In this document: piece after piece, positions 19,616 to 54,550 of the stretch | Position numbering within the stretch: the stretch's first letter is position 1 | How the letters are laid out: every line of letters starts with the position of its first letter | Source of the DNA: a virus | Taxonomy: Duplodnaviria > Caudoviricetes | IMG/VR virus record: IMGVR_UViG_3300024322_000001 | DNA: 64,000 nt | Strand: one strand, 5' to 3' | Translations under genes and position numbers: made by a program | The notes under the pieces: model-generated | What the model was told of the DNA's origin: nothing | What the model saw: the letters and a program-made list of their open reading frames with translations, nothing else | The model's database searches: none

Positions 19616-20101
19616 TTATCTTACTTCTGTTAGTCCTACTCTATCTGCTCTTGTTAAATGGCAATCAACAGTTATAGAAACTGATGATCCAAATCCAGAA
19701 GCATAGTTAGATAGGTTATACGATTTATCTCTACCTAAGAATAGTTGATTTTCTCTTACTGAATCTACTTCATAGAAGTCATTATGCCATTGAATGATGT
19801 CTCCTACTTCCGGAACTACCTGAGAGTCTGCTAAATCCTGTCTAATAAATGCAAATGATGCTTCTCTACCTAAATCTACACCAAATTCCTGTACATCGTA
19901 TACTTGATCACCTCTGGTTATTAAGCAATACATCTTAATTGCATTCCAATATGTCTTTTCTAATGCTTCTCCGTATAAATTAACGTCTAAATCCTCTAAA
20001 CTGAGTTTATGGTATAGTACTTCCTGTTCAATTATGTCTTTTAAAAGCTCACGATTGATGTTTACAAGTAAATCAAAGTCTCTATTAGATCCAAATAGCA
20101 T
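19616..20101 (-). CDS. Head-closure/neck protein (T4 gp14-like)
   Basis: VNLYGEA, FG.D...F, PEVGDII.W...FYEV motifs; position after the gp13-like gene. Confidence 0.65.
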   Translation of the reverse strand: MLFGSNRDFDLLVNINRELLKDIIEQEVLYHKLSLEDLDVNLYGEALEKTYWNAIKMYCLITRGDQVYDVQEFGVDLGREASFAFIRQDLADSQVVPEVGDIIQWHNDFYEVDSVRENQLFLGRDKSYNLSNYASGFGSSVSITVDCHLTRADRVGLTEVR

Positions 20102-20400
20102 TATTTTTCTTCTATTGTTTGTTCACCTACTTCTATCACAGCTATATCACTGTATTTAGCTTTGGCATTAGTTTTTAAAGCGTCAAAAGCTTCTTTAGCT
20201 TCTTTTTGGCTTATTATCTTTACTTTATAGGTAGCTCTATTATTAGTACTGTCTTTAGAAGCTACAGTACAGGTAGTTACACCAGGTAAAGCACGAATAG
20301 CATCGTCATACCCTTCAGGGCCGTCTTCAGTAAAGGTAACTTGTACCATTGCCTCGTACGTTCTGTACTCTATTTCTAATATAATATCTAATAACTTCAT
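20101..20400 (-). CDS. Small protein with MKLxxIILE leader (putative head-internal)
   Basis: MKLLDIILE leader; DAIRALPGVTT alpha/beta core. Confidence 0.55.
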   Translation of the reverse strand: MKLLDIILEIEYRTYEAMVQVTFTEDGPEGYDDAIRALPGVTTCTVASKDSTNNRATYKVKIISQKEAKEAFDALKTNAKAKYSDIAVIEVGEQTIEEK

Positions 20401-21542
20401 TAACCTACGTATATTGTCATTGGAATTGATTTTAAGATGTTTTCTACATCTTCTGATTCTTTAGCTTGTGCATCCAACTGGGCTGACCTACCTGTTGAGG
20501 TTAAAGTTTCTCTTAATTGAGTTAAGAGTGCTGTTTTTTCTGCCCTAGCATCGGTTAATAAGTCGGCTTGATTGAGAGTCGCTTCAGAACCAGGTACTGG
20601 TACTGTTTGATACTTACCTCTTATATAACCTAGCACCTCTTTTGATAAAGCTAACGTGTAGTTGAATATCCATTGACGTCCTACGCTGTTTATACCTTTA
20701 TATTCTGGGTTAGAGTAAGGTACTTCTCCTATATTTGTTATAAGACCTGGGTCATTGTTAAAGTTTAGCTTAGATTTATCAACATTCTTATAGTATTCGA
20801 AGTGCATCTTACCATTTCGACTAGGTATAGGGAATAATCTAAGAGTATTATTTACTATTTCAAAGGAATAAGTAGATTTTCTTACTTGATCGTTAAATTC
20901 AATAGCTTGAGTCTTTAATATGTCATAAGATGTAGGCATCATTAAGAAATTGACACCGGGACTAAATGATCCGAAGTCAAAAGCTGTCATTAAAGACTGT
21001 ACTCCTGTACCTGTACCGGCATATGGGTCAAAATAACGTAATATTGCTGGTGGTGCTTCGTAATACACCTTTCTTATCTCTATACCACCTGTTATTCCTT
21101 CATTCTCTGCCCATTCATTTAAATCGTAATTCTGTTGATTACCTATAGTATCTATAGAACCTGTATACCTATTTACATTACCGCCAACTCCTGCTTCAGT
21201 CCCGTAATGTCTTGATATTTCAACTATTCTGCTGATGGTAGGATCTACTAATTGATTATTTACTTGACTCCCTGTTGAGACTCCTTCTAGGCTTAGATAA
21301 TTTTCTCTAATCTTATAAGTAAATACTTCATTACCGTAAGTTGTTATTGCTTCTTCAAAGCATGCAAACATTTGTTCTTGCTTTAACTCTACATCCATAA
21401 GAGGGTATCCTAAACGAGTACCCACAAATTTTGCTACTTTTACAGCATCAGATTGAAAAGCCTGATCACTATCGTAGAACCCGAAAGGAGTATCTCCTGG
21501 GGTAAACGTAGCAGTGCCGTCCCATATTTGTATATTTGCCAT
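20400..21542 (-). CDS. Neck/head-tail adaptor protein (T4 gp13-like)
   Basis: RLGYPLMDVEL..EQ...CFEEA; WIFNYTLALSKEVLGYIRGKY...TLN: gp13-like signature. Confidence 0.75.
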   Translation of the reverse strand: MANIQIWDGTATFTPGDTPFGFYDSDQAFQSDAVKVAKFVGTRLGYPLMDVELKQEQMFACFEEAITTYGNEVFTYKIRENYLSLEGVSTGSQVNNQLVDPTISRIVEISRHYGTEAGVGGNVNRYTGSIDTIGNQQNYDLNEWAENEGITGGIEIRKVYYEAPPAILRYFDPYAGTGTGVQSLMTAFDFGSFSPGVNFLMMPTSYDILKTQAIEFNDQVRKSTYSFEIVNNTLRLFPIPSRNGKMHFEYYKNVDKSKLNFNNDPGLITNIGEVPYSNPEYKGINSVGRQWIFNYTLALSKEVLGYIRGKYQTVPVPGSEATLNQADLLTDARAEKTALLTQLRETLTSTGRSAQLDAQAKESEDVENILKSIPMTIYVG

Positions 21543-21568
21543 TACTTAAAGTTTTATATAAATAGCGT

Positions 21569-22255
21569 TTAATCTCTAAAGGTTTTATATACGTTCAATA
21601 GAGGTGCAACTATATCATGTCTGTGGTTCTTAGCTAGTGAATGAGTCACAAAGCCCTCTACTTGTTCTTCTAACCTACTTAGGAAGCTAAATCCTGTATC
21701 TCTTTTGTCTCTTAAGTCGATTTGAGCTAAGTCTCCACATATAGCCATCTTAGAACCTTGCCCTAACCTGCCTATTACTGTTTCCATTTGAGAATGAGTA
21801 ACATTCTGTGCTTCATCTACGATTACAAAAGAATTTAGAAAAGTTCTACCTCTCATAAAAGCAAAAGGTACTATTTCTATATTACCATTATCCATTTCCT
21901 TACGTACCTTTGCCTCATTATACAGCATGAATAAATTATGATAGATTGGTGCTAACCATGGGTCCATTTTTTCACGTATATCTCCTGGTAGAAATCCTAT
22001 CTCTTCTTTAGCTACTGTTGGACGGGTTATTATTATCTTATCTATACGTTTGGTAAATAGTAAATCGAGAGCAACTTGTGTAGCTACTAGAGTTTTTCCG
22101 CTTCCGGCCATTCCTTTCAAAACTGTTACAGGATTTTCTAGTATTAATTTTTTTGCTTTCTTCTGCTCTTCATTAAGTTGGACTTTAAACTTTATTGGAT
22201 TCTTCGGTCTTCTCTTATTTGCGAAAACCTCGTCGTGGTAGTTGTTACTAGCCAT
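21569..22255 (-). CDS. phoH: PhoH-family ATPase
   Basis: GMAGSGKT, ITRP, GFLPGD, PFAFMRGRTF, VDEAQN, GDLAQID, RH. Confidence 0.95.
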   Translation of the reverse strand: MASNNYHDEVFANKRRPKNPIKFKVQLNEEQKKAKKLILENPVTVLKGMAGSGKTLVATQVALDLLFTKRIDKIIITRPTVAKEEIGFLPGDIREKMDPWLAPIYHNLFMLYNEAKVRKEMDNGNIEIVPFAFMRGRTFLNSFVIVDEAQNVTHSQMETVIGRLGQGSKMAICGDLAQIDLRDKRDTGFSFLSRLEEQVEGFVTHSLAKNHRHDIVAPLLNVYKTFRD

Positions 22256-22290
22256 ATATAAGTGTATTAAAACTATTACTGTTTCTTACT

Positions 22291-22298
22291 TATAAATA
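22291..22298 (-). promoter_or_regulatory. TATTTATA putative late-promoter motif re-initiating after the capsid terminator
   Basis: Immediately downstream of the terminator U-tract, upstream of phoH. Confidence 0.6.
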
Positions 22299-22301
22299 GA
22301 C

Positions 22302-22327
22302 AAAAAAAAAGAGGCCCGAAGGCCTCT
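22302..22327 (-). terminator. Rho-independent terminator with cUUCGg loop after the major capsid gene
   Basis: AGAGGCC-TTCG-GGCCTCT followed by 8 T. Confidence 0.9.
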
Positions 22328-22351
22328 CTTTATAAAAAATCTAAGTTTAGA

Positions 22352-23935
22352 TTATACCTGAGCTAAATCAGATACGTAAATCTTACCGTAGAATTCTGGA
22401 CGAATCATCTTCTTAGCATAACGAGTCATCAATCCTTTACGTGGAGTAAAGGTATCTGGATCGTATACTAGAGGAGTCATCATTAATGGTACGTAAGGAG
22501 CATATACTGCACCTGCTTCCAAGAACTGTCCACCTCTATAACCAGTTAAGATTACGTTTTCAGTCATGTAAGGGTTTTTGTATACTTGGAATCTGTTCGC
22601 TAAAGAACCGATTTTCTGTACGCCCATTGCAAATTGAGCTTTATCACCGTCAGTTTGTGCAGCATATCCAGGAATTGATTCTAGGATTGTTGCAACAGAA
22701 GGAGAACATACTACGAAATTTGCTCCACCTCTTAACGTTTTTTGGTGAATCTTGTTAGAAACTTTCTGTAGTTTAGTACCTAAAGTTTGGAACCACTGAC
22801 CTTGAGTGTTGTAGAAATCAGAAGTACCTGTAGACCAAGCTGATCCATCCCATACTTTATTGTTTTCTGCAGACCACTTTTCAGTTGTAGCAGCACCTTG
22901 GATTAACATATCAAGTAATTCAAGATCGATCTCCATAGAGATGTACTCAGATAACATTGAAGTCAATTCTGCTTCAGCGTCAATTGAATGATAAGCATTC
23001 AAATCTTGAGCGAATTCTGGAGTCCACTGTGCTTTTAACTTTCTAGTCTTAGCAACAATCGCCTCAGAAGCTAACTGTACGTCGATTTCTGGAATAGAAA
23101 CTGAAGGACTTACATTGTTACCGTCTGCTCCAGAAGCTTCAAAGTCACCTCTTGTGTTATCACCTGGTTGTACGTGGTATTTGATTTTCTTGTTACCTGA
23201 AGAACCAGCGTCTCCAGTTGCAACAACGAATACGATGTCTGAACCATCTACTCTTGTGTACTGTCCGTAAGAAGCAATACCGTCAAGTTGGAAAGCTCTT
23301 ACACCTTCTAAATCTGCATCAGCAGGAGCTGCTAATGTTACAGTATCGAAAGCAGTTAAGTCTAAACTTGCATCGTATCCTACATCTGCTAATGAAGCAG
23401 TTGCTTGTACAGTTGCAGAAATGTTTCCTGAAGTTTTCTCGTTAATAGAGTAACCGAACTGTCCAGCGCCGTAAAGACCACCAGCAACGTCAGTATCTAC
23501 TGCCATTTTAGATGATGCTTCAGTTACGTTACCGTACATGTTGTCTCCGTCACCTCTACCGTTTACAGCAGAACCATATTTAAAGTCTAGATAAAATACT
23601 AGACCTGAAGGTAGGTTCATTGGTTGTACACTTACAAAGTCTTGCGCTACGATTTGAGCGAATACTTTTCTTACAAGTGGTAAAGCAACACCAGCCCACT
23701 GCTCACCTGCACCAGCTGTAAAGCCAGCACCTGTTCCAGAAGCACCTGTGTTGTTTGCTTCAGCTACGATTTGTTTTGCTTGGTTTTCAAGTACCATTGC
23801 CATGTTGTTTTTGGCTTTTTCGTCTTGAATTCCTTCCAACAAACCAGAAGCTGACCACTTATCAGCCAAACGCGCTGCGTCTGCCTGTAGGCTCTTAAAA
23901 TTGTTAGAGCTTTCTAATAATTGGTTTAATTCCAT
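22352..23935 (-). CDS. gp23: Major capsid protein (T4 gp23-like)
   Basis: VQPMNLPSGLVF, AKTRKLKAQWTPEFAQDLNAYHSIDAEAEL, YAPYVPL, FTPRKGLMTRY. Confidence 0.95.
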   Translation of the reverse strand: MELNQLLESSNNFKSLQADAARLADKWSASGLLEGIQDEKAKNNMAMVLENQAKQIVAEANNTGASGTGAGFTAGAGEQWAGVALPLVRKVFAQIVAQDFVSVQPMNLPSGLVFYLDFKYGSAVNGRGDGDNMYGNVTEASSKMAVDTDVAGGLYGAGQFGYSINEKTSGNISATVQATASLADVGYDASLDLTAFDTVTLAAPADADLEGVRAFQLDGIASYGQYTRVDGSDIVFVVATGDAGSSGNKKIKYHVQPGDNTRGDFEASGADGNNVSPSVSIPEIDVQLASEAIVAKTRKLKAQWTPEFAQDLNAYHSIDAEAELTSMLSEYISMEIDLELLDMLIQGAATTEKWSAENNKVWDGSAWSTGTSDFYNTQGQWFQTLGTKLQKVSNKIHQKTLRGGANFVVCSPSVATILESIPGYAAQTDGDKAQFAMGVQKIGSLANRFQVYKNPYMTENVILTGYRGGQFLEAGAVYAPYVPLMMTPLVYDPDTFTPRKGLMTRYAKKMIRPEFYGKIYVSDLAQV

Positions 23936-23958: not shown

Positions 23959-24984
23959 TTATTTAATAATTCCAGCTAATTTTTGCATTCTCTGAACTGC
24001 AGAGGAAACTTCGCTAATCACTTCTGGCTTACTTGCTGTAGTTCCAGTTGCTTTGCTTGCTCTTCCTTTGTGTTCTTTGATAGTAGTCTCTTTTTTAATA
24101 ACTACATTTTCGTTAACTGTTTCAAATACTAACTTAACTTCTTTAACTGTTTCAGCTTTATCGAAAGCAGCAATAATGTTTACTTTTTGTGCTTCGTTTA
24201 AGTTGTTAGCTTTGAAAATTTTGTTTACATAAAGTAACTTAGAGTTTAGTAAATTAACTTCGTTAAGTTCACTTCTCAAAGTTTCGATAGTTTCTAAAGC
24301 GCTTTTAAGTTCTTCTTTAGTTTCTTCATTAACAGGAGCTTCAATTGCAACTTCTTCCATTGCATCTTCTTCTTTCTTACCTTCTTCCATTTCTTCTTCG
24401 CTTTCGCCTTCTGAAATAGCATCAAGTTCTGCTAATAATTCGTCTAAGTCAATCTCTTCGTCACCTTCTTCGCCAGCCATAGGATCGCCCTCGCCTGGTT
24501 CTTCTAATTCTGCTCCAGCGTCTAAATCAGCTCCAACTTCAGCTCCCATATCTTCAGCACCTCCGCCCATTTCTTGTGCGATAATGTCTCTGATTAGGTC
24601 TTTGAAATCTTCAACTGAAAGATCTGATAGATCTTCGTCGTCTGCTGGCTCATCCTCAGATGCAACTTCTTCTTCTTCAGCCTCGTCTGCAGCTTCTTCT
24701 GCATCATCCTCAGCTTCTTCCATTGCTTCTTCTTCACTGTAAGATCCTTCTTCTACTTCTTCTTCGGCTACTTCAGTAGTTACTTCTTCTACATCATCTT
24801 CCATTTCGTTTACTACTTCTTCTTCAACAGATGAATCTTCCATCTCTTGTAGTTTAGCAGCTAACATATCTTTTAGATGAGGAGTCAAAGACTCTTCTAA
24901 AGCTTCCTTAGCGTTAGCAATAGCGGCTTCTCTTACAGACTTAGCTTCAGCAATAGCTTGCTTGAATAAATCTTTGTTTGCCAT
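23959..24984 (-). CDS. Prohead scaffold/core protein (gp22-like)
   Basis: Very acidic coiled-coil protein directly upstream of the capsid gene; many xxE protease-type sites; C-terminal RMQKLAGI. Confidence 0.75.
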   Translation of the reverse strand: MANKDLFKQAIAEAKSVREAAIANAKEALEESLTPHLKDMLAAKLQEMEDSSVEEEVVNEMEDDVEEVTTEVAEEEVEEGSYSEEEAMEEAEDDAEEAADEAEEEEVASEDEPADDEDLSDLSVEDFKDLIRDIIAQEMGGGAEDMGAEVGADLDAGAELEEPGEGDPMAGEEGDEEIDLDELLAELDAISEGESEEEMEEGKKEEDAMEEVAIEAPVNEETKEELKSALETIETLRSELNEVNLLNSKLLYVNKIFKANNLNEAQKVNIIAAFDKAETVKEVKLVFETVNENVVIKKETTIKEHKGRASKATGTTASKPEVISEVSSAVQRMQKLAGIIK

Positions 24985-25113: not shown

Positions 25114-25641
25114 TTATGCAGATGCTGCAACAGCACCAGCTATCTCTGCTCCGACTACTGCTATATCTCTTCCTTTTAGTGCTGCTTTTACTGCTCCTAT
25201 AGTAGCGGTTGCTACATTAGCACCTCTAAGAGCTTGCATTGCTCCTATACCTGCTTTGATACCTAATCCTGCTAACATAGCTATAAATAATCCTTTAGCA
25301 ACTAATTCTCTTTTCTTTTCATCTCTTACGAAAGGCTTAATAAAACCTGAGATAGCTTTAACTATGTTAACTTCATTATTATGTGCCCATTTATGAACTG
25401 CATCAGCTTTATCAGCTGCTTTATCTAAACCTAGTTTTTTAAGTCCTTTAGCAGCATACTTACCTAAAACGTCTAGTACTGTATTAGAAGCAAGTGCCCA
25501 TCCTAATATACCTACTACAGATATAACTTCATTAACTTGTCCTTCTTCTCCTTGTTTACCAAACTCGGCTTCCATAGCTTTTGCTAATTCTTGACCTAAT
25601 TGAGTTTCGTCGCTTTCTAATATTATGTGTGCTAATTTCAT
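25114..25641 (-). CDS. Leader-bearing protein with hydrophobic helices (putative ejected membrane-interacting protein)
   Basis: MKLAHIILE, QVNE, then VISVVGILGWALAS and GLFIAMLAGLGIKAGIGAM. Confidence 0.5.
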   Translation of the reverse strand: MKLAHIILESDETQLGQELAKAMEAEFGKQGEEGQVNEVISVVGILGWALASNTVLDVLGKYAAKGLKKLGLDKAADKADAVHKWAHNNEVNIVKAISGFIKPFVRDEKKRELVAKGLFIAMLAGLGIKAGIGAMQALRGANVATATIGAVKAALKGRDIAVVGAEIAGAVAASA

Positions 25642-26219
25642 TATGCTCTTAATATATCATTTATAATAGAATCTAAGTTTTGAAATTTAGATACTTTTAT
25701 TTTACCTTCTGATAATGCTACTGGGTTCATAAATGCACCGTGAGTAGAAGGATTTGAAACAAAATCCCAACATACTAGTTCGAAATCGTCTTGCACTTCT
25801 AATGCACCTTCATTTGTTTGCTGTACTGATCCTGTACCTCTAGATGAGATACCGATTGTATGGCCTGCTTTTATGATTTCTTTTACGATGTTTCCGGAAG
25901 GAGTATTTAATAACTCTACACGTCCCATAAGGTCGTTTCCTTTCCACCATAAGTCTTTTACTATGTGAGAGGCGTTCTTAAGAGAGACAATAGGAGACTC
26001 AGGGTGATCAAGTTCTCCGAATGCATTACCATTCTCTACAAACTCTTTTATGTACTTTGAGCATTCTCTCTCTAAAATAGGCTTACTATATGTACGTCCA
26101 TTTTGGTTTTTAGATACTGCTCTCTGCATAACCCCTTCGACTTCGTATACACCGGGTCTTTCCTTAGATTCTCTAAGAATTGATTTGAATGGTGTTACGT
26201 CTACTAATAATTGTGCCAT
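25641..26219 (-). CDS. gp21: Prohead maturation protease (T4 gp21-like)
   Basis: NQNGRTY, GELDHP, SHIV, TPSG, GISSRGTGS, DFVSNPS. Confidence 0.93.
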   Translation of the reverse strand: MAQLLVDVTPFKSILRESKERPGVYEVEGVMQRAVSKNQNGRTYSKPILERECSKYIKEFVENGNAFGELDHPESPIVSLKNASHIVKDLWWKGNDLMGRVELLNTPSGNIVKEIIKAGHTIGISSRGTGSVQQTNEGALEVQDDFELVCWDFVSNPSTHGAFMNPVALSEGKIKVSKFQNLDSIINDILRA

Positions 26220-26230: not shown

Positions 26231-26641
26231 TTATTGAAAAATATCGTACGCTACTCCTTCGAATACTGAATATGTTAATTTATGTTCAGTTCCTTCTGGG
26301 GTATAGTCCCCATAGAATCCGTCTTCATAGGATACTGGGAATTCTCTGTCTGATTCTTCAGATTTATAATCAGCTACTGTTGATAGTCTGTGTTTCTCTA
26401 ATCGCTTAGCTACTACTGCTGCTGGTTCAGGTTCTCCGATATCTACTTGTCCTCCTCCGAGGCCTGCTGTTCCACCGTCCATTTCAGCTACTATAACATC
26501 TTTAGTTATATCGACACCAAATTTTCGAAAAGCTTGCTCAACAGAGTAATCTGCATCTTCCACTACTTCTTCGTTTAATTGTCTACTGTTAGTAGTTAAG
26601 TTGTTTTCTGTTAAGAACTTTCTTAGGTTAAAATTGTTCAT
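26231..26641 (-). CDS. MNNF-leader protein (putative capsid-internal cargo)
   Basis: MNNFNLRKFLTENNLTTNSRQLNE leader shared with four genes at 35112-37443. Confidence 0.65.
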   Translation of the reverse strand: MNNFNLRKFLTENNLTTNSRQLNEEVVEDADYSVEQAFRKFGVDITKDVIVAEMDGGTAGLGGGQVDIGEPEPAAVVAKRLEKHRLSTVADYKSEESDREFPVSYEDGFYGDYTPEGTEHKLTYSVFEGVAYDIFQ

Positions 26642-26658: not shown

Positions 26659-28968
26659 TTATAATGCTCCGTTGATTGTAGGTGCTGAAAATACTGTTTG
26701 TTTTTCTTCTTCTCCTAAAGGCCTTTCGCCTGAGTTATGAGCATCGATATCTGCTTGAGATATTACTCTAACTTTAGGTTGATCTAATCCTTTAGTAAAC
26801 CCTCCTTTAACAGCAGGTCTTAAATCTTTATTGAATGCTTGTTCAATTGCGGGTGCTAGAAAGCCTCCTACTTTTAAACCTTCTTCATTTCTTATATCTC
26901 CTAGAGTGTTGTATACCTTTTGTATCTTACTTCTAGTTTTATCGTAATAAGATTCAATATCAGTTACAATATCCTGTAGAGCTATAATAGCTTGTTTCAT
27001 TCCTTCGTAGCCTCCGTATGTATCAGAGAATTCTGCTAATGCATTAGTTGCAGCTTCATTTATTACTCCTTCTTCTAATACTTTAAATATAATAGCTTTA
27101 ATATTCTCTTTAACAGCTTCATCTTTACCCATCGCTTTTTTGATAGCTTTGTCTTTAGCTGCCATATAATCATCTTTATCTACATCTCCATCTCCGTCAT
27201 GATCTTTACCTTTAGCTTCTTCTAGGTTCTCAACCATAAATTGAGTTTCTAAATATTCTAATACGTCTTTTTTAGCAAACTCTATCATTCCAGGTTCTGT
27301 CATTGGGCCCATTTTCCATTCTTCCCAAGCTTTAATTAACATATTAACACCTTTGTCAAATAAAGGTCCCATGCTCTCTACATACCCTCCAGTTTCGTAA
27401 TCGTTTTCAGTAACTACTTTACCTCCTTGAGATTTTCTGCGTCTACCTTCGTTTACTCCATTGTCGTCATCCCAAGGACCTTTCATAATATCAACACCAA
27501 TGTTGTAATGATCTCCTATGGCGTACATTACCTCTTCAGCTTCTTCTCTTTCTGAAGTATCGTTTTCTTCAGCTCTGTCTTGAATAAGAGCAATAAACTC
27601 CTGTAGGCTACCTACTCTTTCGTTGATTACTTCTTCAACATCTGCTAAACCTTCATCATCGTCTAAATCTGCTGTCATATCAGTATTAACTGGATCTGAA
27701 CCTTCAAGTTGTTTTCTAACTTTAGAAACACCTTCGTTGAAACTACTTAAAGTCTTTTTAATAGCCGCTCTGAATTTCTTTAAGTTATCTAATACTTCTG
27801 CTTTATTACCTTCTTTAGCAGCATCGATTGCATAAGATAGATGACTACCTTCTGTGTGGTAATTAACATCTTCGAATGAATCAAATAATGCTTGCATTTT
27901 ATCTATCGGTGTGTTTAATCTAACTTTTAATCCTGCTTTGAGCATTCCTTCGTAATCAAAATCACTAGAAAACATTTGACCAAGCTTGTATAACTTGTCA
28001 ATTGATTTCATATCTGTATCTTTACCGTATTTAGCAATTCTAGCCATTTCATCATCAGACATAGCTTCTTTAACAAACTTAGCTTTAGCAGCATCAAAAT
28101 CTCCTTTATGGAGACTATCAACTACTTTTCTACCTAAAGTTTCTAATTGATCTGCATCTAGTGAATGAGGCTTATTAAATCCTTTTAAGTACCCTTGGCC
28201 TATTGCTCCATAATCTGCTGGGTCAATAACATCTTCTGCAGACTTAGCAACTTTTTCTTGCATATAATCAGCTCCTGATTCGTAATTTACTGATAAAAAC
28301 TCTTGAAAGTTATCCATTACGGCTTGCATGCCTTCATCAGAACCATCTGCTTGTTCTTCCCATTCTGGGTGAGTTTTATAAAAGTCGTTAATGATTTCAT
28401 CATCAATTAAACTCTTACCGGTTTTAGGATTAGCATAATATTTTTTAATATAATCAGCTACTGAATCTGCTTGATCATATTCGTTTACTGGTTTAGTATG
28501 ATTTTCTTTTAAATCAGCTTTCTTAAGTCCATTATGAACATCTACTTCATTACCTTTTTTAGGCTCAACCATTTGGTCGTGTTTATCTACCTTAGAAGAT
28601 TCTCCTGCTATTAAGTTAATATAGTGATTAGCATCTTTCTGTAAATTAGCAATTACTTTAATTCTAGCTTTCATGTAATCTTCTTTAGATACATTCCCAG
28701 TAGAGTCTATACCCTGTGCTTCCAGTTCTGCATCAATTCCTCTTTCAACTACATTTATAGGAAATTGATCTGCTAATACATCAATATCTTTCTTAACTTC
28801 TTTCTTTTCAAAAATAAGACTCTTTTGTTTAAGAATAGATACGGAATCTTTATACCCGTTCCATTGAGTGATGAATTGCGGATATGCTTGTCTCATTTGA
28901 CGGACAAATTCTGCTTCTTGAAGTTTACCTTCTAATACCGCATGATATTTTTGTGTTGCTGTTTTCAT
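26659..28968 (-). CDS. Large modular prohead core/internal protein with many [ILVM]xE sites
   Basis: LKE, VNE, MQE, VKE, FNE, INE, VTE, LEE junctions; DHDGDGDVDKDD calcium-binding-type motif. Confidence 0.6.
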   Translation of the reverse strand: MKTATQKYHAVLEGKLQEAEFVRQMRQAYPQFITQWNGYKDSVSILKQKSLIFEKKEVKKDIDVLADQFPINVVERGIDAELEAQGIDSTGNVSKEDYMKARIKVIANLQKDANHYINLIAGESSKVDKHDQMVEPKKGNEVDVHNGLKKADLKENHTKPVNEYDQADSVADYIKKYYANPKTGKSLIDDEIINDFYKTHPEWEEQADGSDEGMQAVMDNFQEFLSVNYESGADYMQEKVAKSAEDVIDPADYGAIGQGYLKGFNKPHSLDADQLETLGRKVVDSLHKGDFDAAKAKFVKEAMSDDEMARIAKYGKDTDMKSIDKLYKLGQMFSSDFDYEGMLKAGLKVRLNTPIDKMQALFDSFEDVNYHTEGSHLSYAIDAAKEGNKAEVLDNLKKFRAAIKKTLSSFNEGVSKVRKQLEGSDPVNTDMTADLDDDEGLADVEEVINERVGSLQEFIALIQDRAEENDTSEREEAEEVMYAIGDHYNIGVDIMKGPWDDDNGVNEGRRRKSQGGKVVTENDYETGGYVESMGPLFDKGVNMLIKAWEEWKMGPMTEPGMIEFAKKDVLEYLETQFMVENLEEAKGKDHDGDGDVDKDDYMAAKDKAIKKAMGKDEAVKENIKAIIFKVLEEGVINEAATNALAEFSDTYGGYEGMKQAIIALQDIVTDIESYYDKTRSKIQKVYNTLGDIRNEEGLKVGGFLAPAIEQAFNKDLRPAVKGGFTKGLDQPKVRVISQADIDAHNSGERPLGEEEKQTVFSAPTINGAL

Positions 28969-31968: not shown

Positions 31969-31993
31969 TAATGTGTATTTTTATATAAATAGT

Positions 31994-36110: not shown

Positions 36111-36129
36111 TGTATTTGCTTTAAATCTT

Positions 36130-36426: not shown

Positions 36427-36462
36427 TGTATTTGTTTTTATATATTTAGACTACTAATTATC

Positions 36463-36726: not shown

Positions 36727-36753
36727 TTTATTTATTTTTATTTGATGTTTATA

Positions 36754-39747: not shown

Positions 39748-39750
39748 ATC

Positions 39751-42837: not shown

Positions 42838-42876
42838 ATAATATAAATTTTATATACGTATATAATTATAAATAGA

Positions 42877-44130: not shown

Positions 44131-44131
44131 A

Positions 44132-45327: not shown

Positions 45328-45359
45328 CGATAAGACTTTAACTATAAATAGAGCTAATT

Positions 45360-46859: not shown

Positions 46860-46878
46860 AACCTTTATTTTATATATA

Positions 46879-46909
46879 AATATACGAAAAAATTAGGTAG
46901 TCTCCAACT
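46879..46909 (-). promoter_or_regulatory. Host-type promoter overlapping a TATTTATA motif (46875..46882)
   Basis: AGTTG-N20-TATATTTATA. Confidence 0.6.
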
Positions 46910-47470: not shown

Positions 47471-48799
47471 TTAATTAATATGTCCGTTAATTAACTTAGC
47501 AAGACCTTCTGCTAATAACTTAGCTTCATCCTGGAGTGGGTATATAGGGGTAGGTGTTTTTAGGGCTTCTTTAGGTTTGGTGGTATTTTCATTTAAAGCA
47601 TCATCTCCGTTTTTTAAACTATCTTCCCAATTTCTAAAGGTAATATTTCCGATTAGGTATGCTTCTTTTTCTATTTCAAGCAAGCTATCATCCTCGTTGG
47701 TATTTGTTGTACCGTACGTCTTTAGCCTACCTTCTATGTTTTGCATATGATGAACCATTTCATGTGAAAAGGATCTTACTATATCTTTATTATGTCTACC
47801 TTTAACGTATAAAACGATTTCCTTATTATTCGGATCATAATATGCTGTTTTACCAAAAAAGTTATTTGCAGCTACATCATCTTTTCTAAGCTTAACTTCA
47901 GGTAGAGGAACTATATTCATTTTCTGATCAAGCATATACTCTAATAAAGATGCTATATACTCTTTAAGTTTTGGAGCTCTCAACTCATCATCATTGTTAG
48001 ATTCTGTAATTGGTACGTCAAACTTAACTACTATATTATCACTGTTAAGGTTTATATTAGTACCGCTAGGAATTAATCGAGATATATAATCATAAAGAAA
48101 GTTAAGTTTCTTTTTATCTACTGAACGAGTTATTTCTTCTATAGAGGTATCTTCTTTTTCAAAGTAACCTTCTACAAATCCAGATAAATTACTACTTAAT
48201 ATTTCTGCAACTATTTTATCTTTTAAATCTGATAGTATGTTTAGGATTTCTTCTCTAGATAAAACTTCAGGAAAAAAATCTATAATATTATCTAAATCAC
48301 CGGCTAAAATACTTTTTCTAAAATCTGTTGCTCTTACTCCTGATCCGGGTGCTGCTGCTAATGCTAATCCTTGTACGTTAGGTGCATTTTTAAAAGTTGT
48401 TACTCTTCTTAAGTCAACAAAATCTTTATCTCCTCTAATACCGGTTACAGATACAAACTCTTGATCAGGGTTAGCTTGTGCATAATCTTTTGCAGCAAAC
48501 ATTGGATTAGATTCTCCATCGCGTATTTCAACATTACCTAAGTACTTAGAGTATACCTCCCATATAGACATTGATTCTTCCTTACTTATACCGTTTCTCT
48601 CACCTGCTCCAACAAATACTATAACTTTATCTATCTTAGGTTTTTCACTACTTCTGCCTTTAAGAAGTTCTGCACCTGTTTCTTTGTAATTATCTTTATT
48701 GTATACAGAACCATTATAAGATCCATCTAGTAAAGATTTCACTACATTGAAATGACCTCTGTGAGGTGGTTTATATGCTCCTGGATATAATGCTATCAT
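47471..48799 (-). CDS. HxGH nucleotidyltransferase fused to an HExxH metallopeptidase-like domain
   Basis: ALYPGAYKPPHRGH...VRATDFR; C-terminal TAYYDP...DIVRSFSHEMVHH...EKEAY. Confidence 0.7.
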   Translation of the reverse strand: MIALYPGAYKPPHRGHFNVVKSLLDGSYNGSVYNKDNYKETGAELLKGRSSEKPKIDKVIVFVGAGERNGISKEESMSIWEVYSKYLGNVEIRDGESNPMFAAKDYAQANPDQEFVSVTGIRGDKDFVDLRRVTTFKNAPNVQGLALAAAPGSGVRATDFRKSILAGDLDNIIDFFPEVLSREEILNILSDLKDKIVAEILSSNLSGFVEGYFEKEDTSIEEITRSVDKKKLNFLYDYISRLIPSGTNINLNSDNIVVKFDVPITESNNDDELRAPKLKEYIASLLEYMLDQKMNIVPLPEVKLRKDDVAANNFFGKTAYYDPNNKEIVLYVKGRHNKDIVRSFSHEMVHHMQNIEGRLKTYGTTNTNEDDSLLEIEKEAYLIGNITFRNWEDSLKNGDDALNENTTKPKEALKTPTPIYPLQDEAKLLAEGLAKLINGHIN

Positions 48800-49737
48800 G
48801 CTAAAAATGCTTGTACTTTTGTATTTATTTCTGCTACTGAGGAATGTTTTAATTTTTCTTGAAATGTTGGGTTATAAATCATTTCTACAATATTATCTAG
48901 TACTTGATCTGCTTTTTCTTTTCTTTTTTTACTACTCTCTCTGTACTTATCAACTGTAGCTTTGAGTTTATCTTGCCCTGGGCCTACTCCGTTTTTTCTG
49001 TAAGCTTTTAAAAATGCTATTTTTATAGCTTTATCTTCTGATCTGTTCTCTTTATCCCAACTTATACTACCTACATGTTTTATAAATTCTTGTTCTTCCT
49101 CAGGTGTCATTTCTACTGGTACAAAGAATGAAGATCCTCCAACGTTATTATCTTCGTTAAATTTTTCTAAGTAATCTTTTACTCCACTTAAGCCGGTTTT
49201 AGCAGCTTTGTCAAATCCTTCAACTTCTTTTTTGTACTTTCCTCCTCTATCACTAACGAATATAGATAAATTACCTTTTAATTGTCCATTAAAATCTTCT
49301 ATTTTAGCATACACGTTTCTCCAGGTTGCAAAAACAGAGTCTCCAGGTATATTTCTTTCTCTAGCCATAAAGTTAGATACGTATGAGATCATAGGATGAG
49401 CATACACCATAACCATATAGACTTCATACCCTAAAGCAAGTAGTTTATCTAAGTTTTTTTGGAAACCTGCTCCTGATGCGGTAGTGTCCCAAACAAAGCT
49501 AATTTTTTCTTCTGCTGCTGCCATTGCGTCTTTGGACGTTTGGTTGGCTGCTGGTCCTAGTTTGTTGTAGTACGGGTGATCTTTGTCCTCCACGTACTTG
49601 TCTGGGTTGAATTGTATTAGGCTGTCTAGGGACAGTTGGTTTAATAAGTATGTTTTCCCTGACCCTGCTCCTCCTGCCATTATTACTGCCTTCGGGGACG
49701 ACTTGTCTTCTAGTATTAGTGTTGATAGCTTTATCAT
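48796..49737 (-). CDS. Zeta-toxin-like P-loop kinase with MIKLSTLILE leader
   Basis: MAGGAGSGKT, NPD, VWDTT, GYEVYMVMV, RERNIP. Confidence 0.7.
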   Translation of the reverse strand: MIKLSTLILEDKSSPKAVIMAGGAGSGKTYLLNQLSLDSLIQFNPDKYVEDKDHPYYNKLGPAANQTSKDAMAAAEEKISFVWDTTASGAGFQKNLDKLLALGYEVYMVMVYAHPMISYVSNFMARERNIPGDSVFATWRNVYAKIEDFNGQLKGNLSIFVSDRGGKYKKEVEGFDKAAKTGLSGVKDYLEKFNEDNNVGGSSFFVPVEMTPEEEQEFIKHVGSISWDKENRSEDKAIKIAFLKAYRKNGVGPGQDKLKATVDKYRESSKKRKEKADQVLDNIVEMIYNPTFQEKLKHSSVAEINTKVQAFLA

Positions 49738-50329
49738 TGTTATTAAGTATTACTCTTTTATTATAATTAGTTCTTCTATTAGTATTACTACTACTATTAC
49801 GGCTAGTTGATAATCTAGAAGTTCTATATCCGTTAATATATGAAATATTTTCTCTTCTACTGTTATTCCATATTACATTATATCCTGGGTTGTTCCAAGG
49901 GCTTTGGTACCAATTCCTATAACCACTCCACCAATAGCTATTACTTCTCCAATAAGGTCTATTCCAACTATGCCAATTATTATAAGGGTACCCCCATACC
50001 CAATCATTCCACATTTGTGTTCTATCCCAATAGTAACTATAACCCCAATAGGGTCTATTCCAGTTATATCTATTACCTAGTAAACGATTATTCCAATCAA
50101 ATGAAGCTGGTTGGGATAAAGCATATTGTGCAAAATCGTATCTAAAATTAAAATCAGTTCTTAATTTATTCCGAACTTGAAATTCATTTAGAGTATCTAC
50201 TGTATAGTCTCCAGAAGAATAAATACCGTCTATATGACCAGCATGGTTTAATGCTGTATATTTAAATTGAACACCACAGCTAGTTAGTACTGATGTAATA
50301 AATAATGCTAATAGTATTCCTTTTTTCAT
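49499..50329 (-). CDS. Lipoprotein with Trp/Tyr/Asn-rich core and Arg-rich tail overlapping the kinase gene
   Basis: MKKGILLALFITSVLTSC lipobox; codon bias in the overlap supports the full-length frame. Confidence 0.7.
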   Translation of the reverse strand: MKKGILLALFITSVLTSCGVQFKYTALNHAGHIDGIYSSGDYTVDTLNEFQVRNKLRTDFNFRYDFAQYALSQPASFDWNNRLLGNRYNWNRPYWGYSYYWDRTQMWNDWVWGYPYNNWHSWNRPYWRSNSYWWSGYRNWYQSPWNNPGYNVIWNNSRRENISYINGYRTSRLSTSRNSSSNTNRRTNYNKRVILNNNDKAINTNTRRQVVPEGSNNGRRSRVRENILIKPTVPRQPNTIQPRQVRGGQRSPVLQQTRTSSQPNVQRRNGSSRRKN

Positions 50330-50332
50330 ATA

Positions 50333-51115
50333 TTATAATTTTAGAGTTGTAGGGTAACTATTATAAATAGGTTCAACAACAGGATGTTCTAAACTATATA
50401 ATTTATATATCATTTTAAATAGTTCAAAATTCTTTTCAATTTCATCTATTTGAAGTACTTTCCATCCTTTTCCTTGGATAACATTTTTCTGTTTAGAAGG
50501 TCCTCTAGAATGAGCTTTTAACCATACGATACCTGTTCTTTCTATCTTTACTCCTTTTGATTCTTCTAACGCTTTAGCATAAGATGCTAACTGTAAATCA
50601 TAAGACTTATGAATAGAATTAGAAGTTTTAATATCTAGTAGCCAAACTTCTCCGTCAATCTTACATACTATATCTGCAGTTCCTGCATACTTATGTTCGT
50701 CAGACCATACAAATTCTTCTGCTGATATAAGTTCAGGTTTATATGTAGTCCAGAAATCATGAAACTTTAAAATCATTTCCCATACTATTTGAGAGTATTT
50801 AGCATTTCCGTAATCATCCATCCAAGATACCTCTTCTCCTAGTATAAGTTTTTCACAAGCTTCATGTACTTGAGTTCCTTGTTTTCCTGCTCTTCGCATA
50901 ATAAGATCGGCGTTATGCCCAACGTCTTTAAGCCAAGACTCAAAAAACTTATTTTTGGGCATATACTGGAGTATAGTGGTTACGGAAGGATAGTATACTC
51001 CTTCGCCTCTCTTATAAACTCTTCTATCTAAGAAATTAATCTGTTTAAGTTGTGGATTAAAATCTAATCTTTTCTTCTCATTTTGTTCAAGAATATTCAT
51101 TCCTTGTTTTATCAT
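50333..51115 (-). CDS. PD-(D/E)XK exonuclease (Cas4/lambda-exo superfamily)
   Basis: YPSVTTIL, GTQVH, YAGTADIV, LLDIKTS, QLASY. Confidence 0.8.
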   Translation of the reverse strand: MIKQGMNILEQNEKKRLDFNPQLKQINFLDRRVYKRGEGVYYPSVTTILQYMPKNKFFESWLKDVGHNADLIMRRAGKQGTQVHEACEKLILGEEVSWMDDYGNAKYSQIVWEMILKFHDFWTTYKPELISAEEFVWSDEHKYAGTADIVCKIDGEVWLLDIKTSNSIHKSYDLQLASYAKALEESKGVKIERTGIVWLKAHSRGPSKQKNVIQGKGWKVLQIDEIEKNFELFKMIYKLYSLEHPVVEPIYNSYPTTLKL

Positions 51116-52062: not shown

Positions 52063-52093
52063 AATATACGAAAAATAATTCTAAATATCAACT
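52063..52093 (-). promoter_or_regulatory. Host-type promoter upstream of primase
   Basis: AGTTG-N20-TATATT; the -33 element lies in the last codons of the upstream kinase gene. Confidence 0.6.
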
Positions 52094-52509
52094 AATTTAA
52101 GGTTATTTTTTTGATTTACCATAATGTTAGAAGGTCTAATATCAAGCTCGTCAGGATCTATACCGTGCTGTTCTGCTTCTCTATTGACATTTTCTACCCA
52201 TTCATCTGGTATCTCGCCTCTAAACTCTCCTAAAACCTCCATTTGTATAATTCCTAATTTAGGATTAATAACTTCTACTTCGTATATTCTAGCAAAGTTA
52301 TTTGTTTTTTTACCTTTAAGTATTTCAGCATGTTCTAACTCGATTTCGTCAGTAGTGACTTTATAAACTCTTCCATTAAGTAGGTAAGCTGATCCGTAAT
52401 CTCCAGAGCCTAAATGTTTACCTCCTAGATCTACTATCTTATCTACCTCTTTTTCAAATTCTGGATCGTAGTAAAGAATCTCTCCTAATATGACGTGTGA
52501 AAGTCTCAT
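52081..52509 (-). CDS. Minimal protein-kinase-like (PKL fold) protein with leader
   Basis: LGSGDYGSAY, VYKVT, IIQMEVL, DIRPSNIM, KLVDI; leader MRLSHVILGE. Confidence 0.75.
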   Translation of the reverse strand: MRLSHVILGEILYYDPEFEKEVDKIVDLGGKHLGSGDYGSAYLLNGRVYKVTTDEIELEHAEILKGKKTNNFARIYEVEVINPKLGIIQMEVLGEFRGEIPDEWVENVNREAEQHGIDPDELDIRPSNIMVNQKNNLKLVDI

Positions 52510-52515
52510 ACATGA

Positions 52516-52860
52516 TTAATTAGAAGGTCTTTTGAAATGGAACTTTATTTTTGGGTAGTAGTACCTCTCACCTGGGTCCTCTTCAAAGTAGTTAGAATCA
52601 GATTGAATATCGTAGCCTAATGATTTTACATAGTCGAGTATTTTATTCCACACTCCTTTTTCAAAATCAGAATTAACTAAGAAAGTAATGCTACCGAAAC
52701 TCATATCTTTTAATGGGTCATCATCAGAACGTCCACCAGCATAATCTCCTAGAGAAACCATAACTCTATCGATATTAAACTTATTGCTTATATCTTTCTC
52801 TAGAGCTTTTTCCTCTGCTTTGTACTCTCCAACTTCTAATATGATACTTGTTAATTTCAT
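52516..52860 (-). CDS. Leader-bearing hypothetical protein
   Basis: MKLTSIILE leader. Confidence 0.6.
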   Translation of the reverse strand: MKLTSIILEVGEYKAEEKALEKDISNKFNIDRVMVSLGDYAGGRSDDDPLKDMSFGSITFLVNSDFEKGVWNKILDYVKSLGYDIQSDSNYFEEDPGERYYYPKIKFHFKRPSN

Positions 52861-52994: not shown

Positions 52995-53242
52995 ATCTTT
53001 ACAACTAAATCACCTGTTCCTTTTATTAATCGGTGATATGTTCCTTTGGATATAAATAGCTTAGATTCATATAAAGATACAGGTAATTGATTGTCTAATT
53101 GAAATTTCCAGTCTGTAGTGTTAATTGCTTCAATCCATCTATCTTCTCTATCCCTATGCCAAACAAATTCATCTTCAGGCGTATCTTGACTAAACTCCCT
53201 AATTAAATAACCATCTTTTGTTTCCTGTGTATAGGGTCGCAT
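52979..53242 (-). CDS. Small cupin-fold protein
   Basis: WHRDRE...WKFQLD...I.KG.YHRLIKG...L.VKI. Confidence 0.65.
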   Translation of the reverse strand: MRPYTQETKDGYLIREFSQDTPEDEFVWHRDREDRWIEAINTTDWKFQLDNQLPVSLYESKLFISKGTYHRLIKGTGDLVVKIWQKY

Positions 53243-53769
53243 TATGCTTTAGTTTGTATACGAATCCACCTAGTACCGTCAGACCATACCATGATACCTT
53301 CGTGTGCTTTATCTAAGGTATACCCGTCTGGGTATTCATCGTTATCTAAAAACTGTCCCGGTGGTGCCATTAGTACTGCCTTAGTATTGGCTTCAAATTG
53401 ACTCCCCATAACAAATCTTATAGAACGGTAAGTACTAGTTTCTGATGTTGCATCAGGTAGTACTATATGTGCTTCGCCATTACCTCCAGACCAATTTACA
53501 TCTATCATTGAAGTATTTTCGTAGGTAGAGCCTGTAACGTAGTATTCCGGGTAGGGAGATGAACTCGACCCAGCTACTGTAATGAAGACTGGTACTAAGT
53601 AAGTATTTCCTGTGTTGGTTTGATTATAGTTATTTATAGAACTAGTTACGTAGTTATTAACTTGATCTAAAGTAGTATACTTAGTTACCCCATTCTGAAC
53701 ATCGACAAACAGTTCGTCACCTTGAAGTTCGGTAGATTGAGGTAGCCTTGAAATAGGTAGATTAGGCAT
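53242..53769 (-). CDS. Virion structural protein
   Basis: PISRLP...GDE...VQNGVT N-terminal anchor-like motif; IVLPDA...WSDGTRW C-terminal fibre-like domain. Confidence 0.5.
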   Translation of the reverse strand: MPNLPISRLPQSTELQGDELFVDVQNGVTKYTTLDQVNNYVTSSINNYNQTNTGNTYLVPVFITVAGSSSSPYPEYYVTGSTYENTSMIDVNWSGGNGEAHIVLPDATSETSTYRSIRFVMGSQFEANTKAVLMAPPGQFLDNDEYPDGYTLDKAHEGIMVWSDGTRWIRIQTKA

Positions 53770-53983
53770 GTCGAGTAGTTATATATATTCCTGAGTTATT
53801 TTCTTGTAAAATAGTAAATAGGTCTTCCTGTAGAAGGAATCCATCTATTCTTGGTCCTTTATTCTGTCTTATCAATTCATTTGACAGAGCATCGAGATAA
53901 AATCTATAATGTCGTATCTGTTCACTTTCATTTAAGATACGAATATGATTTTGATTTCGAAACTGTTTCCAAGTTAATTCCAT
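53762..53983 (-). CDS. Small hypothetical protein
   Basis: WKQF...ILNE leader-like region; FLLQED..ILQE motif. Confidence 0.5.
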   Translation of the reverse strand: MELTWKQFRNQNHIRILNESEQIRHYRFYLDALSNELIRQNKGPRIDGFLLQEDLFTILQENNSGIYITTRHA

Positions 53984-53986
53984 GTT

Positions 53987-54550
53987 TTACCAATACCCTG
54001 AAAAGTTTTTAGAGCCTCCTAAGGACTTCCAATAGCGTCCTATATTACAAGACCAGTATCCTGGTTTAGTTTTATCCTTCTTAGTAGAACATTTATGTCT
54101 AGCTGCAAATGAAGCTCTAGCTCCTGGTTCTTTTATTTTAACTGATAAGTTACCGCTATCGCCAAAATTTACTTTCTTTACATTTCCTGTTTTAGGGTTC
54201 TTAACATATACAAAGAATTTTTTAGGTCCGCCTCTTTTAGGTTTATTTAAGGGTACTTCTCTTCCTTTATATTCAGCTTCATCAATGTCTTCTTCAGCTA
54301 CCATGGGTAAATCTAATGGTACTTTTTCTCCTTCAAATACTCCGTACTCTCCTATATCTGTAGATTCTAGTAAATTTATGTCTTGTTCGTTTAGTTCTAT
54401 GAGACCGTCTCTCCAAGCGTCTCTCGCTTCAGCAAATAATTGTATAAAGTTATCACTAGAGTAACGGTAGACATTCTCATATAAAGAGAGACTGTTATCT
54501 ACATGGTACTGTAGAGATGGTAATCCGACTAAGTCTTTAATTTTTATCAT
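53987..54550 (-). CDS. Two-module protein with basic C-terminal domain common in aquatic T4-like phages
   Basis: IDE|AEYKGREVPLNKP...KKFFVYV...VKKVNFGD...SFAARHKC...GYWSC. Confidence 0.6.
   Translation of the reverse strand: MIKIKDLVGLPSLQYHVDNSLSLYENVYRYSSDNFIQLFAEARDAWRDGLIELNEQDINLLESTDIGEYGVFEGEKVPLDLPMVAEEDIDEAEYKGREVPLNKPKRGGPKKFFVYVKNPKTGNVKKVNFGDSGNLSVKIKEPGARASFAARHKCSTKKDKTKPGYWSCNIGRYWKSLGGSKNFSGYW

Follow-up and report, generated by a model that had tools for sequence, protein, structure and literature searches.

Why should enzymes, small basic proteins and large acidic proteins of one phage begin with much the same short peptide? The question is raised by IMGVR_UViG_3300024322_000001, a stretch of 64,000 nucleotides (nt) from a virus of the Caudoviricetes (the whole stretch is called the window in the following). 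The original prediction had about 15 of its genes starting with a tag, a short N-terminal peptide that ends in glutamate and was taken for a capsid-targeting code of the phage T4 kind. The reading that we favour, with a confidence somewhat above even, is that the tags represent T4-type capsid-targeting propeptides and substrates of a gp21-type protease; packaging and trimming would probably proceed as in the internal proteins of T4. A broader statement is put forward more tentatively, as falling a little short of an even chance: the tag MKLxxIIL(x)E and two sister tags may form a portable capsid-loading address in a large, almost wholly uncultured aquatic clade of T4-like phages, by which each virion would be supplied with some 20 proteins of 18 or more unrelated families, among them a zeta-toxin-like kinase and a deoxyribonucleotidase, and these proteins would enter the host with the DNA.

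All genuine genes of the window lie on the minus strand. A T4-like head module is recognizable by phrog profile matches (capsid, protease) and by gene order, with fibre and glycosyltransferase genes below 20 kb and tail and baseplate genes above 55 kb. The sole cultured relatives are the Flavobacterium phages ‘immuto’ (160 kb; host Flavobacterium sp. LMO8), with which core proteins are ~70–76% identical and gene order is common; beyond these the nearest cultured phages, judged by the protease, are T4-like cyanophages and T-evens at ~37–42% identity. Uncultured relatives in IMG/VR number in the hundreds (379 protease loci, 213 nucleotidase loci), and one complete uncultured relative genome of 167,696 bp, G001, was examined whole. 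The G+C content of the genome is 31–39%.

Frequency of the N-terminal motif

The predicted motif, [IL][ILV]xE or [IL]LE, was scored in the first 13 residues. All 14 N-termini quoted in its support are present at the respective gene starts, all on the minus strand, and the estimate of about 15 genes was confirmed: the motif occurs in 16 of 67 genes as compared with 48 of 1449 internal 13-residue segments (3.3%; binomial p 4.7e-10). For [ILV]ILE the counts are 6 of 67 N-termini versus 1 of 1449 internal segments. The Glu of the motif hits falls at residue 8–12, and across all listed genes at residue 8–13. As had been claimed, fibre, glycosyltransferase and primase genes are free of the motif, and the same is true of portal, terminase and baseplate genes; no gene at 1–20100 (fibres, glycosyltransferases) or at 53000–64000 (tail, baseplate) carries it.

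A strict rule was then used for all genomes alike, with a hydrophobic residue at P4, [ILV] at P3 and Glu at residue 7–14 (P1 is the Glu, P2 to P4 are the residues before it and P1′ the residue after it). It is matched by 20 of 67 genes in the window (4.9% of internal segments), by 25 of 194 in G001 (4.0% internal) and by 22 of 285 in T4 (4.0% internal). That the rule picks out the right proteins in the reference phage is seen from seven of the T4 matches, which are the known gp21 substrates IPII, IPIII, gp68, gp21, gp22, gp24 and Alt. In the T4-like cyanophage S-PM2 the count is not significant (13 of 269 versus 3.5% internal). The excess over chance amounts to ~17 genes per genome here, compared with ~8–10 in T4.

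The motif is not equally frequent in non-late genes: immuto genes 1–156, which comprise replication, nucleotide metabolism and sugar metabolism, carry it in 5.4% of cases versus 3.7% internally (p 0.19), and the structural half of immuto in 10.7% versus 3.1% (p 0.002). In G001 it is found in 14 of the 41 genes at 60–100 kb, which corresponds to 20–54 kb of the window, in 4 of the 25 at 30–40 kb and in 4 of the 128 elsewhere. The whole pattern might be one of chance and base composition, since gene starts rich in A and T would tend to encode K, L, I and E; the G+C content is low, and ~5% of internal segments match the strict rule. We regard this explanation as barely credible, given binomial p-values of 5e-10 to 4e-11, a bimodal conservation among families (see below), the lack of enrichment in the early genes of immuto and in S-PM2, and a Glu in every one of the 151 class A tags. 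The tag set as a whole cannot be put down to chance, but individual weak members may still be chance matches.

Conservation, shape and modularity of the tag

Genes were called in 160 related loci and their proteins clustered without the first 25 residues, which gave 74 families of at least three members. These families fall into two groups: about 28 have the site in ≥78% of their distinct members and about 38 in ≤20%. The tag that we call class A, MK[LI]xx[IL][IL][LF](x)E, heads about 18 mutually unrelated families, many of which are small proteins of 66–207 amino acids (aa) without a counterpart in the window. Among the distinct N-termini of the form MK[LI]xx[ILV][ILV][ILF], Glu follows in 151 of 151, either at position 9 (n = 108) or at position 10 (n = 43); Asp takes the cut position in none of these 151, though it is nearly as common as Glu in the protein bodies. 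Weighted by family, P3 is Ile (0.49), Leu (0.44) or Val (0.06), P4 is hydrophobic, P2 is Leu in half of the cases and otherwise K, F, A, S, N or R, and P1′ varies. With Glu at P1 in all 151, in the I-L-E and the L-x-E register alike, I or L at P3 in 93% and a free P2, the site matches the L/I-x-E rule of T4.

Three classes of tag can be distinguished: A, MK-L-x-x-I-I-L-(x)-E; B, M-K/T-R/K-S/T-E/Q-L-x-x-L-I/V-K/R-E; and C, MNNFDLRKFLxE. The tagged window proteins show no body-to-body similarity. Orthologues of the gene at 25114–25641 carry all three: class A in the window, class C (MENSFNLRKFLSE) together with a relic ILKE in the closest relatives (L005–L007, bodies 83% identical), and class B (MKRSQLHELVKE) followed by VILE in a further relative (L083); the best immuto homologue also carries class B. 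That the classes swap and stack on one orthologue argues that A, B and C serve one function. The codons for K, L, I and E inside the tag mirror genome-wide usage, which indicates selection on the peptide and not on DNA or RNA. An invariant Glu, a shifting register and a free P2 are the behaviour of a short linear recognition motif and not of a packed structural residue.

Head protease, capsid protein, scaffold and core proteins

The head module contains the following genes (↓ marks the predicted cut):

22352–23935, minus strand, major capsid protein, gp23-like (phrog_138)
23959–24984, minus strand, acidic scaffold at the gp22 position (order protease–scaffold–capsid), N-terminus ending AIAE13↓A
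25114–25641, minus strand, 175-aa hydrophobic/amphipathic protein directly after the protease, class A tag MKLAHIILE↓S, maximum hydropathy 1.73
25641–26219, minus strand, prohead protease, T4 gp21 homologue (phrog_207, E 5.7e-54), own N-terminal site SILRE17↓S conserved
26231–26641, minus strand, class C gene adjoining the protease, fifth of its class
26659–28968, minus strand, 769-aa acidic protein between portal and protease, tag MKTATQKYHAVLE↓G (AVLE13)
28965–29195, minus strand, 76-aa basic protein at the gp67 position, class B tag MKRSELTSLVKE↓V (LVKE12)
30079–31968, minus strand, portal protein
31994–33568, minus strand, large terminase
35112–37443, minus strand, four tandem class C genes, tag MNNF[DN]LRKFLxE↓N, which swaps with class A

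A gp21-family serine protease is encoded, short putative propeptides end in L/I-x-Glu, and the tag is common to unrelated mature parts. The protease aligns with the T4 gp21 structure 5JBL (E 1.3e-24) including the His and Ser motifs and is 41% identical to the T4 gene product; its own site is ILRE17↓S, compared with LIE9 in T4 gp21. The N-terminal 58 residues of the capsid protein are homologous to the gp23 propeptide, which has 65 residues in T4, and hold four [ILV]xE sites (LLE8, LLE34, VLE50, VAE58) that are all kept in 30 relatives. In the alignment to gp23/gp23*, residue 64 of the window protein pairs with mature residue 10, which places the T4 cut Glu65↓Ala66 at IVAE58↓A59; the maturation cut is thus probably IVAE58↓A with Ala59 as the mature N-terminus; in the immuto capsid protein the predicted cut follows IVSE. 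The proposal that MELNQLLE is the capsid protein's own cleavage tag did not hold, as LLE8 lies inside this 58-residue propeptide.

The scaffold N-terminus is nearly invariant in 63 relatives, the P3–P1 residues of AIAE13 are identical to those of the T4 targeting sequence, and the mature protein would be highly acidic (pI 4.1, D+E 31%). In the 76-aa protein (mature pI 10.1), [ILV]-[KR]-E is kept in 30 of 30 distinct orthologue N-termini, mostly at residue 12; the immuto orthologue, gene 199, starts MKKSQIVKAVQE. Relatives of the 769-aa protein have mostly AV[LVQ]E↓G and some VLNE↓T, with ...NAIQE↓G in immuto, where the class C tag sits on genes non-orthologous to the class C genes of the window. 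The 769-aa protein, the scaffold and the five class C genes are of the same kind as the tagged genes first listed, among which they do not appear. By homology, the same motif stands at the predicted capsid maturation site and on the scaffold, the protease and the protein at the gp67 position.

This pattern can be set against an explanation in which nothing is cut: the tag would be a docking helix for another partner, such as the phage-encoded chaperonin GroEL/GroES, a site on the membrane or a factory for replication or assembly, and the Glu a contact residue. Snyder and Tarkowski are reported to have found in 2005 (cited in PMC10052503) that the N-terminus of T4 gp23 directs proteins to GroEL; immuto encodes both GroES and GroEL, several tagged proteins are enzymes beside replication genes, and conservation sometimes extends past the Glu. 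However, the motif copies the gp21 rule exactly, with a Glu that is never replaced by Asp or Gln among 151 tags of class A, and I/L-x-E is preserved through shifts of the register. The same site appears at the homology-predicted capsid cut and on scaffold and protease, the tag genes cluster around the head module, and we know of no short chaperonin tag of such kind. We judge a docking helix to be unlikely.

Another use of such a peptide would be as the recognition sequence of a modifying enzyme, in the manner of ribosomally synthesized and post-translationally modified peptides with a radical-SAM/SPASM maturase. The single radical-SAM open reading frame (ORF) of G001 (157589–158377) is 84% identical to an immuto gene annotated as QueE and lies ~60 kb from the tag genes, and no maturase-like gene was found among the 30 window proteins scanned, which makes this use highly improbable.

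For the capsid-targeting propeptide that we prefer, the model is T4, in which gp21 cuts after L/I-x-Glu and virion proteins lose N-terminal propeptides of 7–65 residues (PMC9026906). The first 10 residues of IPIII suffice for head targeting, to which residues 4 and 7 are important, as residues 8 and 10 are to processing (PMC9026906; PMC3012670). The likeness is close: a homologous protease, a tag some 10 residues long with M-K at its start and I/L-x-Glu at its end, tag lengths that fit the 7–19-residue propeptides of T4 gp21 substrates (PMC9026906), tags on unrelated fast-evolving small proteins and at least one enzyme, and the same site on scaffold, protease and a capsid protein with a homologous propeptide. 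By analogy, the tag would be an amphipathic helix of 9–13 residues that binds its protein to the scaffolding core during prohead building. The gp21-family protease at 25641–26219 would then remove it by cutting after the Glu of [I/L/V]-x-E, and the trimmed protein would stay in the head with the DNA and be ejected into the host, with classes A, B and C doing the same job. Scaffold-core binding, cleavage after Glu, head retention, ejection and late timing are all steps that we infer. Capsid loading is best supported for the genes of the head module and for the small proteins of classes A and B, and less well for the kinase and the nucleotidase.

Tagged cargo candidates

Outside the head module proper the following genes were considered:

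20101–20400, minus strand, 99-aa ferredoxin-like protein after the head-completion gene, class A tag MKLLDIILE↓I
37459–39747, minus strand, 762-aa acidic protein, class A tag MHKLEKLILE↓S
43503–43724, minus strand, 73-aa very basic protein, class B tag MTRTQLTELIRE↓V, mature pI 10.3
43717–44130, minus strand, 137-aa protein, class A tag MKLSRILKE↓M
44132–44974, minus strand, 280-aa basic protein, class B tag MTNKEIANIVSE↓S, mature pI 9.7
44971–45327, minus strand, 118-aa protein with a hydrophobic segment, tag MTQKQLLE↓S and a second site VLKE13
45931–46476, minus strand, 181-aa HAD-type 5′(3′)-deoxyribonucleotidase (phrog_2643, E 1.7e-24), tag MKNSIVDLLE↓A
46473–46859, minus strand, 128-aa protein, class B tag MTREQVNSIIKE↓V
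48796–49737, minus strand, 313-aa zeta-toxin-like P-loop kinase/ATPase (PF06414, E 3.4e-12, residues 11–130), class A tag MIKLSTLILE↓D
52081–52509, minus strand, 142-aa protein, class A tag MRLSHVILGE↓I
52516–52860, minus strand, 114-aa acidic protein, class A tag MKLTSIILE↓V
33576–35099, minus strand, 507-aa gene immediately preceding the large terminase, MNLIDRVILE↓W, membership doubtful
50333–51115, minus strand, PD-(D/E)XK-like nuclease with weak PF12705 and Cas4 matches, MIKQGMNILE↓Q, rejected

Judged by conservation among orthologues and by agreement with I/L/V-x-E, robust members are 20101–20400, 25114–25641, 52516–52860, 52081–52509, 48796–49737, 43717–44130, 37459–39747, 45931–46476, 44971–45327, 46473–46859, 44132–44974, 43503–43724 and 28965–29195. 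In the family of the 99-aa protein [IL]xE is kept in 26 of 26 aligned relatives with the Glu at residue 8, 9 or 10, while the columns themselves vary. AlphaFold predicts a helix at residues 3–8 with a predicted local distance difference test score (pLDDT) of ~63 and a ferredoxin-like core from residue 13 at 80–87; an N-terminus serving as a core strand is ruled out by this model and by the floating register of the Glu. A fold search with the protein gave a generic ferredoxin-like fold and no E-value ≤0.001. The 114-aa protein has ILE, IFE or LLNE in 13 of 13 orthologues. For the 142-aa protein the site is at residue 9 or 10 in 18 of 18 distinct orthologue N-termini; relatives have the variant MKLSQIILE↓G, and gene 178 of immuto has MISIYNILKE.

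The kinase is the most closely documented enzyme. In 33 relatives E10 is invariant and K3, L4 and I8 are kept in ≥90%, which places these tag residues among the best conserved of the whole protein, and P2 varies (L, R, I, A, Q, K). The AlphaFold model from 33 sequences has a mean pLDDT of 89 with residues 1–11 below 50, an isolated helix at 4–12 and the first strand at 16. Among 50 distinct N-termini of the nucleotidase 92% keep LLE, and gene 184 of immuto, the orthologue, has ...DLLLE; as the profile of the family begins at residue 22 only, the tag forms an N-terminal extension. With the tags of the kinase, the 99-aa protein and the nucleotidase lying outside the predicted fold or profile, the tag appears dispensable for the fold of its cargo. 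A search with the kinase in a collection of deposited phage genomes gave no match, and in a large protein search the best 120 matches listed are relatives of 63–100% identity. A lipoprotein-like ORF upstream (49499–50329) overlaps the kinase tag and P-loop by 239 nt (49499–49737), and some public calls (P0031, P0032, P0040) give a 242-aa kinase covering only 77% of the window protein, which may use a downstream start.

Among the remaining candidates, the site is kept in 88% of 48 distinct orthologue N-termini of the 118-aa protein, in 86% of 22 for the 128-aa protein and in 93% of 14 for the 137-aa protein, for which G001 has MKLRDILLKE. The last gene was called as 43717–44154; its start was amended, with support from orthologues, to the ATG at 44130. 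Orthologues of the 280-aa protein have ...LTLE↓SLRDWFK or ...ITLE↓SLRDWFK, and relatives of the 73-aa protein show the variants MIGE, IVRE and LILE. In relatives of the 762-aa protein ILE↓[AS]Y follows leaders of variable length (Glu at 9–12), and a few have IVLQ without a Glu. The immuto genes 176 and 192, orthologues of tagged genes, carry MKKSELVKLIKE and MKKLIRIVE, respectively.

The tagged set had been described as a toolkit with two kinases, a nucleotidase, a possible nuclease, a membrane-active protein and basic DNA-binding peptides. One kinase-like protein and the HAD nucleotidase were borne out; a second tagged kinase was not found, and the cysC-like kinase at 1957–2454 is untagged. 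The nuclease has to be dropped for want of a conserved Glu, since NILKQ or NILKE stands at this place in many of its orthologues. Hydrophobic segments occur in two tagged proteins (25114–25641 and 44971–45327), and three are basic, namely those of 73, 76 and 280 aa. MNLIDRVILE of the 507-aa protein is doubtful as a tag, as P3 is often Tyr (LYTEW in many orthologues) and conservation continues for 45 residues past the Glu. It looks like part of a conserved 45-residue N-domain (MNLIDxxxLEWSYKTKKGYPD...) that sits on hypervariable bodies, which are wholly different even in close relatives and fall into at least eight families on clustering, and the protein looks like another kind of modular protein than the tagged cargo.

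A late-promoter-like motif and the timing of the tagged genes

The T4 late promoter is TATAAATA. In the window a motif that resembles it, [AC]TATTTATA, occurs 17 times on the coding (minus) strand and twice on the other: CTATTTATA has 11 copies on the minus and 1 on the plus strand, where 2.95 would be expected on both strands together, and ATATTTATA has 6 and 1. Copies are located as follows:

31984–31992, minus strand, [AC]TATTTATA
42867–42875, minus strand, [AC]TATTTATA
45343–45351, minus strand, CTATTTATA, directly upstream of the 118-aa gene
46875–46883, minus strand, ATATTTATA, directly upstream of the 128-aa gene
50362–50370, minus strand, [AC]TATTTATA
53051–53059, minus strand, CTATTTATA, near the 114-aa gene
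21557, 22291, 25079, 30067 and 54627, minus strand, further copies of [AC]TATTTATA

The motif usually stands 15–40 nt before a start codon. It is found upstream of portal, scaffold, head-completion, fibre and baseplate genes and upstream of the tag-containing blocks starting at 54550, 52994, 50329, 46859, 45327 and 42837. In G001 it is distributed 39 to 5 by strand, 28 of the 39 copies lie within 80 nt upstream of a start codon, and tagged genes are nearer to it than other genes (median 639 versus 2017 nt, p 0.005). In immuto the distribution is 28 to 3 by strand, with a density per gene four times higher in the structural half. [AC]TATTTATA is probably the late promoter of this clade, and its placement, as a consensus match, would be compatible with late expression of the tagged genes. 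The sequence TATATAAAA was dropped as a late-promoter candidate, being part of this better-defined motif. At least three immuto tag genes lie directly downstream of such a motif (record positions 1336, 25037 and 59990).

The position of the enzymes bears on a mixed case, in which only head-module proteins (capsid, scaffold, the 76-, 175- and 769-aa proteins and class C) would be substrates; they would function in the scaffold or core, to be broken down and expelled afterwards. The tags of the kinase, of the nucleotidase and of the small genes at 43–53 kb would have another use, or be cut off without delivery of the protein, and there would be no injected toolkit. This would resemble the fate of gp22, gp67 and gp68 in the T4 core, most fragments of which are lost from the head after cleavage (PMC9026906). 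The late timing of the 47–53 kb block, which also holds the primase, rests on promoter-like motifs inside upstream genes only, and the kinase family, having no match in deposited phage genomes, comes without functional context. Enzymes beside replication genes thus leave some room for this case. We consider it rather unlikely all the same: the class A tags of the kinase and of the 175-aa head-module protein are indistinguishable, the kinase has an invariant Glu10, a free P2 and a tag outside its fold, T4 packages the enzyme Alt by the same route (PMC9026906), and the cargo bodies lack the enrichment in internal [ILV]xE that the proteins belonging to neither cargo nor core show overall.

Several points weigh against capsid loading as the common role of the tags. 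Chance alone would give ~3 matches to the strict rule in the window and ~8 in G001, and two window matches failed the conservation test. Depletion of internal sites in the cargo bodies is a weak trend only (31 observed versus 36 expected, z −1). In several families the residues after the Glu are conserved as well (LLE-AYPIPE in the nucleotidase; E-SLRDWF), and the N-terminus could therefore be structural or serve some other purpose. The promoter motif was recognized by its consensus only, and 9 of its 28 immuto copies fall in the non-structural half. The block around the primase and a nuclease, to which the tagged kinase and nucleotidase and two of the small class A genes belong, could be early or middle. 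A literature search returned work on T4, SPN3US and phiKZ and nothing on tags or virion proteomes in immuto-like phages.

Comparison with other phages and meaning

Compared with T4, the consensus here is MKLxxIIL(x)E, there are three tag classes that replace or stack on one another, and the excess of tagged genes is roughly twice as large. The putative cargo includes a zeta-like kinase, an HAD nucleotidase and large acidic proteins of 760–1030 aa. The giant phages phiKZ and SPN3US are alike in that a diverged gp21-like protease removes N-terminal propeptides from many of their head proteins, behind a short motif with a final Glu, and in ejecting cargo (PMC9026906; PMC10052503). They differ in their long propeptides without a shared short tag, in a motif that is not I/L-x-E, in genome size and head architecture, and in that most SPN3US head proteins, 42 of them, stay uncut. 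The kind of element would be a known one, that of the T4 capsid targeting sequence; the consensus, the three interchangeable classes, the number of tagged genes and the cargo set it apart from T4.

If the tags are what we take them for, the proteins that a phage injects with its DNA could be listed from sequence and read directly from metagenomes, for hundreds of uncultured marine and freshwater relatives of immuto. Such proteins are the earliest to act on an infected cell and in many cases oppose its defences; T4 has only a few of them, which have been studied thoroughly. The tag would in that case reveal injected host-takeover and anti-defence proteins, in a cargo set that looks about twice that of T4 and includes nucleotide-metabolism and kinase enzymes without a known virion role. 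A further use could lie in loading these phages with foreign proteins, for which the sequence of T4 has already served.

Further observations

The density of internal [ILV]xE sites was tried as a marker of protease substrates and proved uninformative, with untagged proteins as top scorers and the scaffold at z 1.4 only. A conserved 284-aa protein adjoining the portal (29195–30049), without an N-terminal tag, has 15 such sites versus 6.9 expected from shuffles (z 3.9); it may belong to the core or scaffold and be cut at internal sites.

GC-rich hairpins with T runs, resembling intrinsic terminators, are present at 22256–22351, 3′ of the capsid gene, and at 11821–11911, 3′ of the fibre gene 11912–13480; in the gap 22256–22351 the late-promoter-like motif comes after the hairpin.

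The non-structural half of immuto holds a few tagged small genes (L002 1803–2318, 24569–24994 and 25061–25456; L003 10009–10353), and one class C immuto gene adjoins the DNA polymerase. Two names in the immuto record MW353175 look wrong. The ‘DNA polymerase phi-like protein’ of GenBank (L001 21689–22930) corresponds to the head scaffold, with 72% identity over the last 110 residues and the same N-terminus. The ‘cob(I)alamin adenosyltransferase’ (L001 29924–30925) starts with a class C tag and resembles the class C proteins of the window in the tag region only. Finally, an 841-aa immuto protein (L001 32025–34550) matches the middle of a 1028-aa window protein together with a C-terminal segment of the 762-aa protein, both encoded within 37459–42837, which indicates that modules have been reshuffled among the large proteins of the head region.

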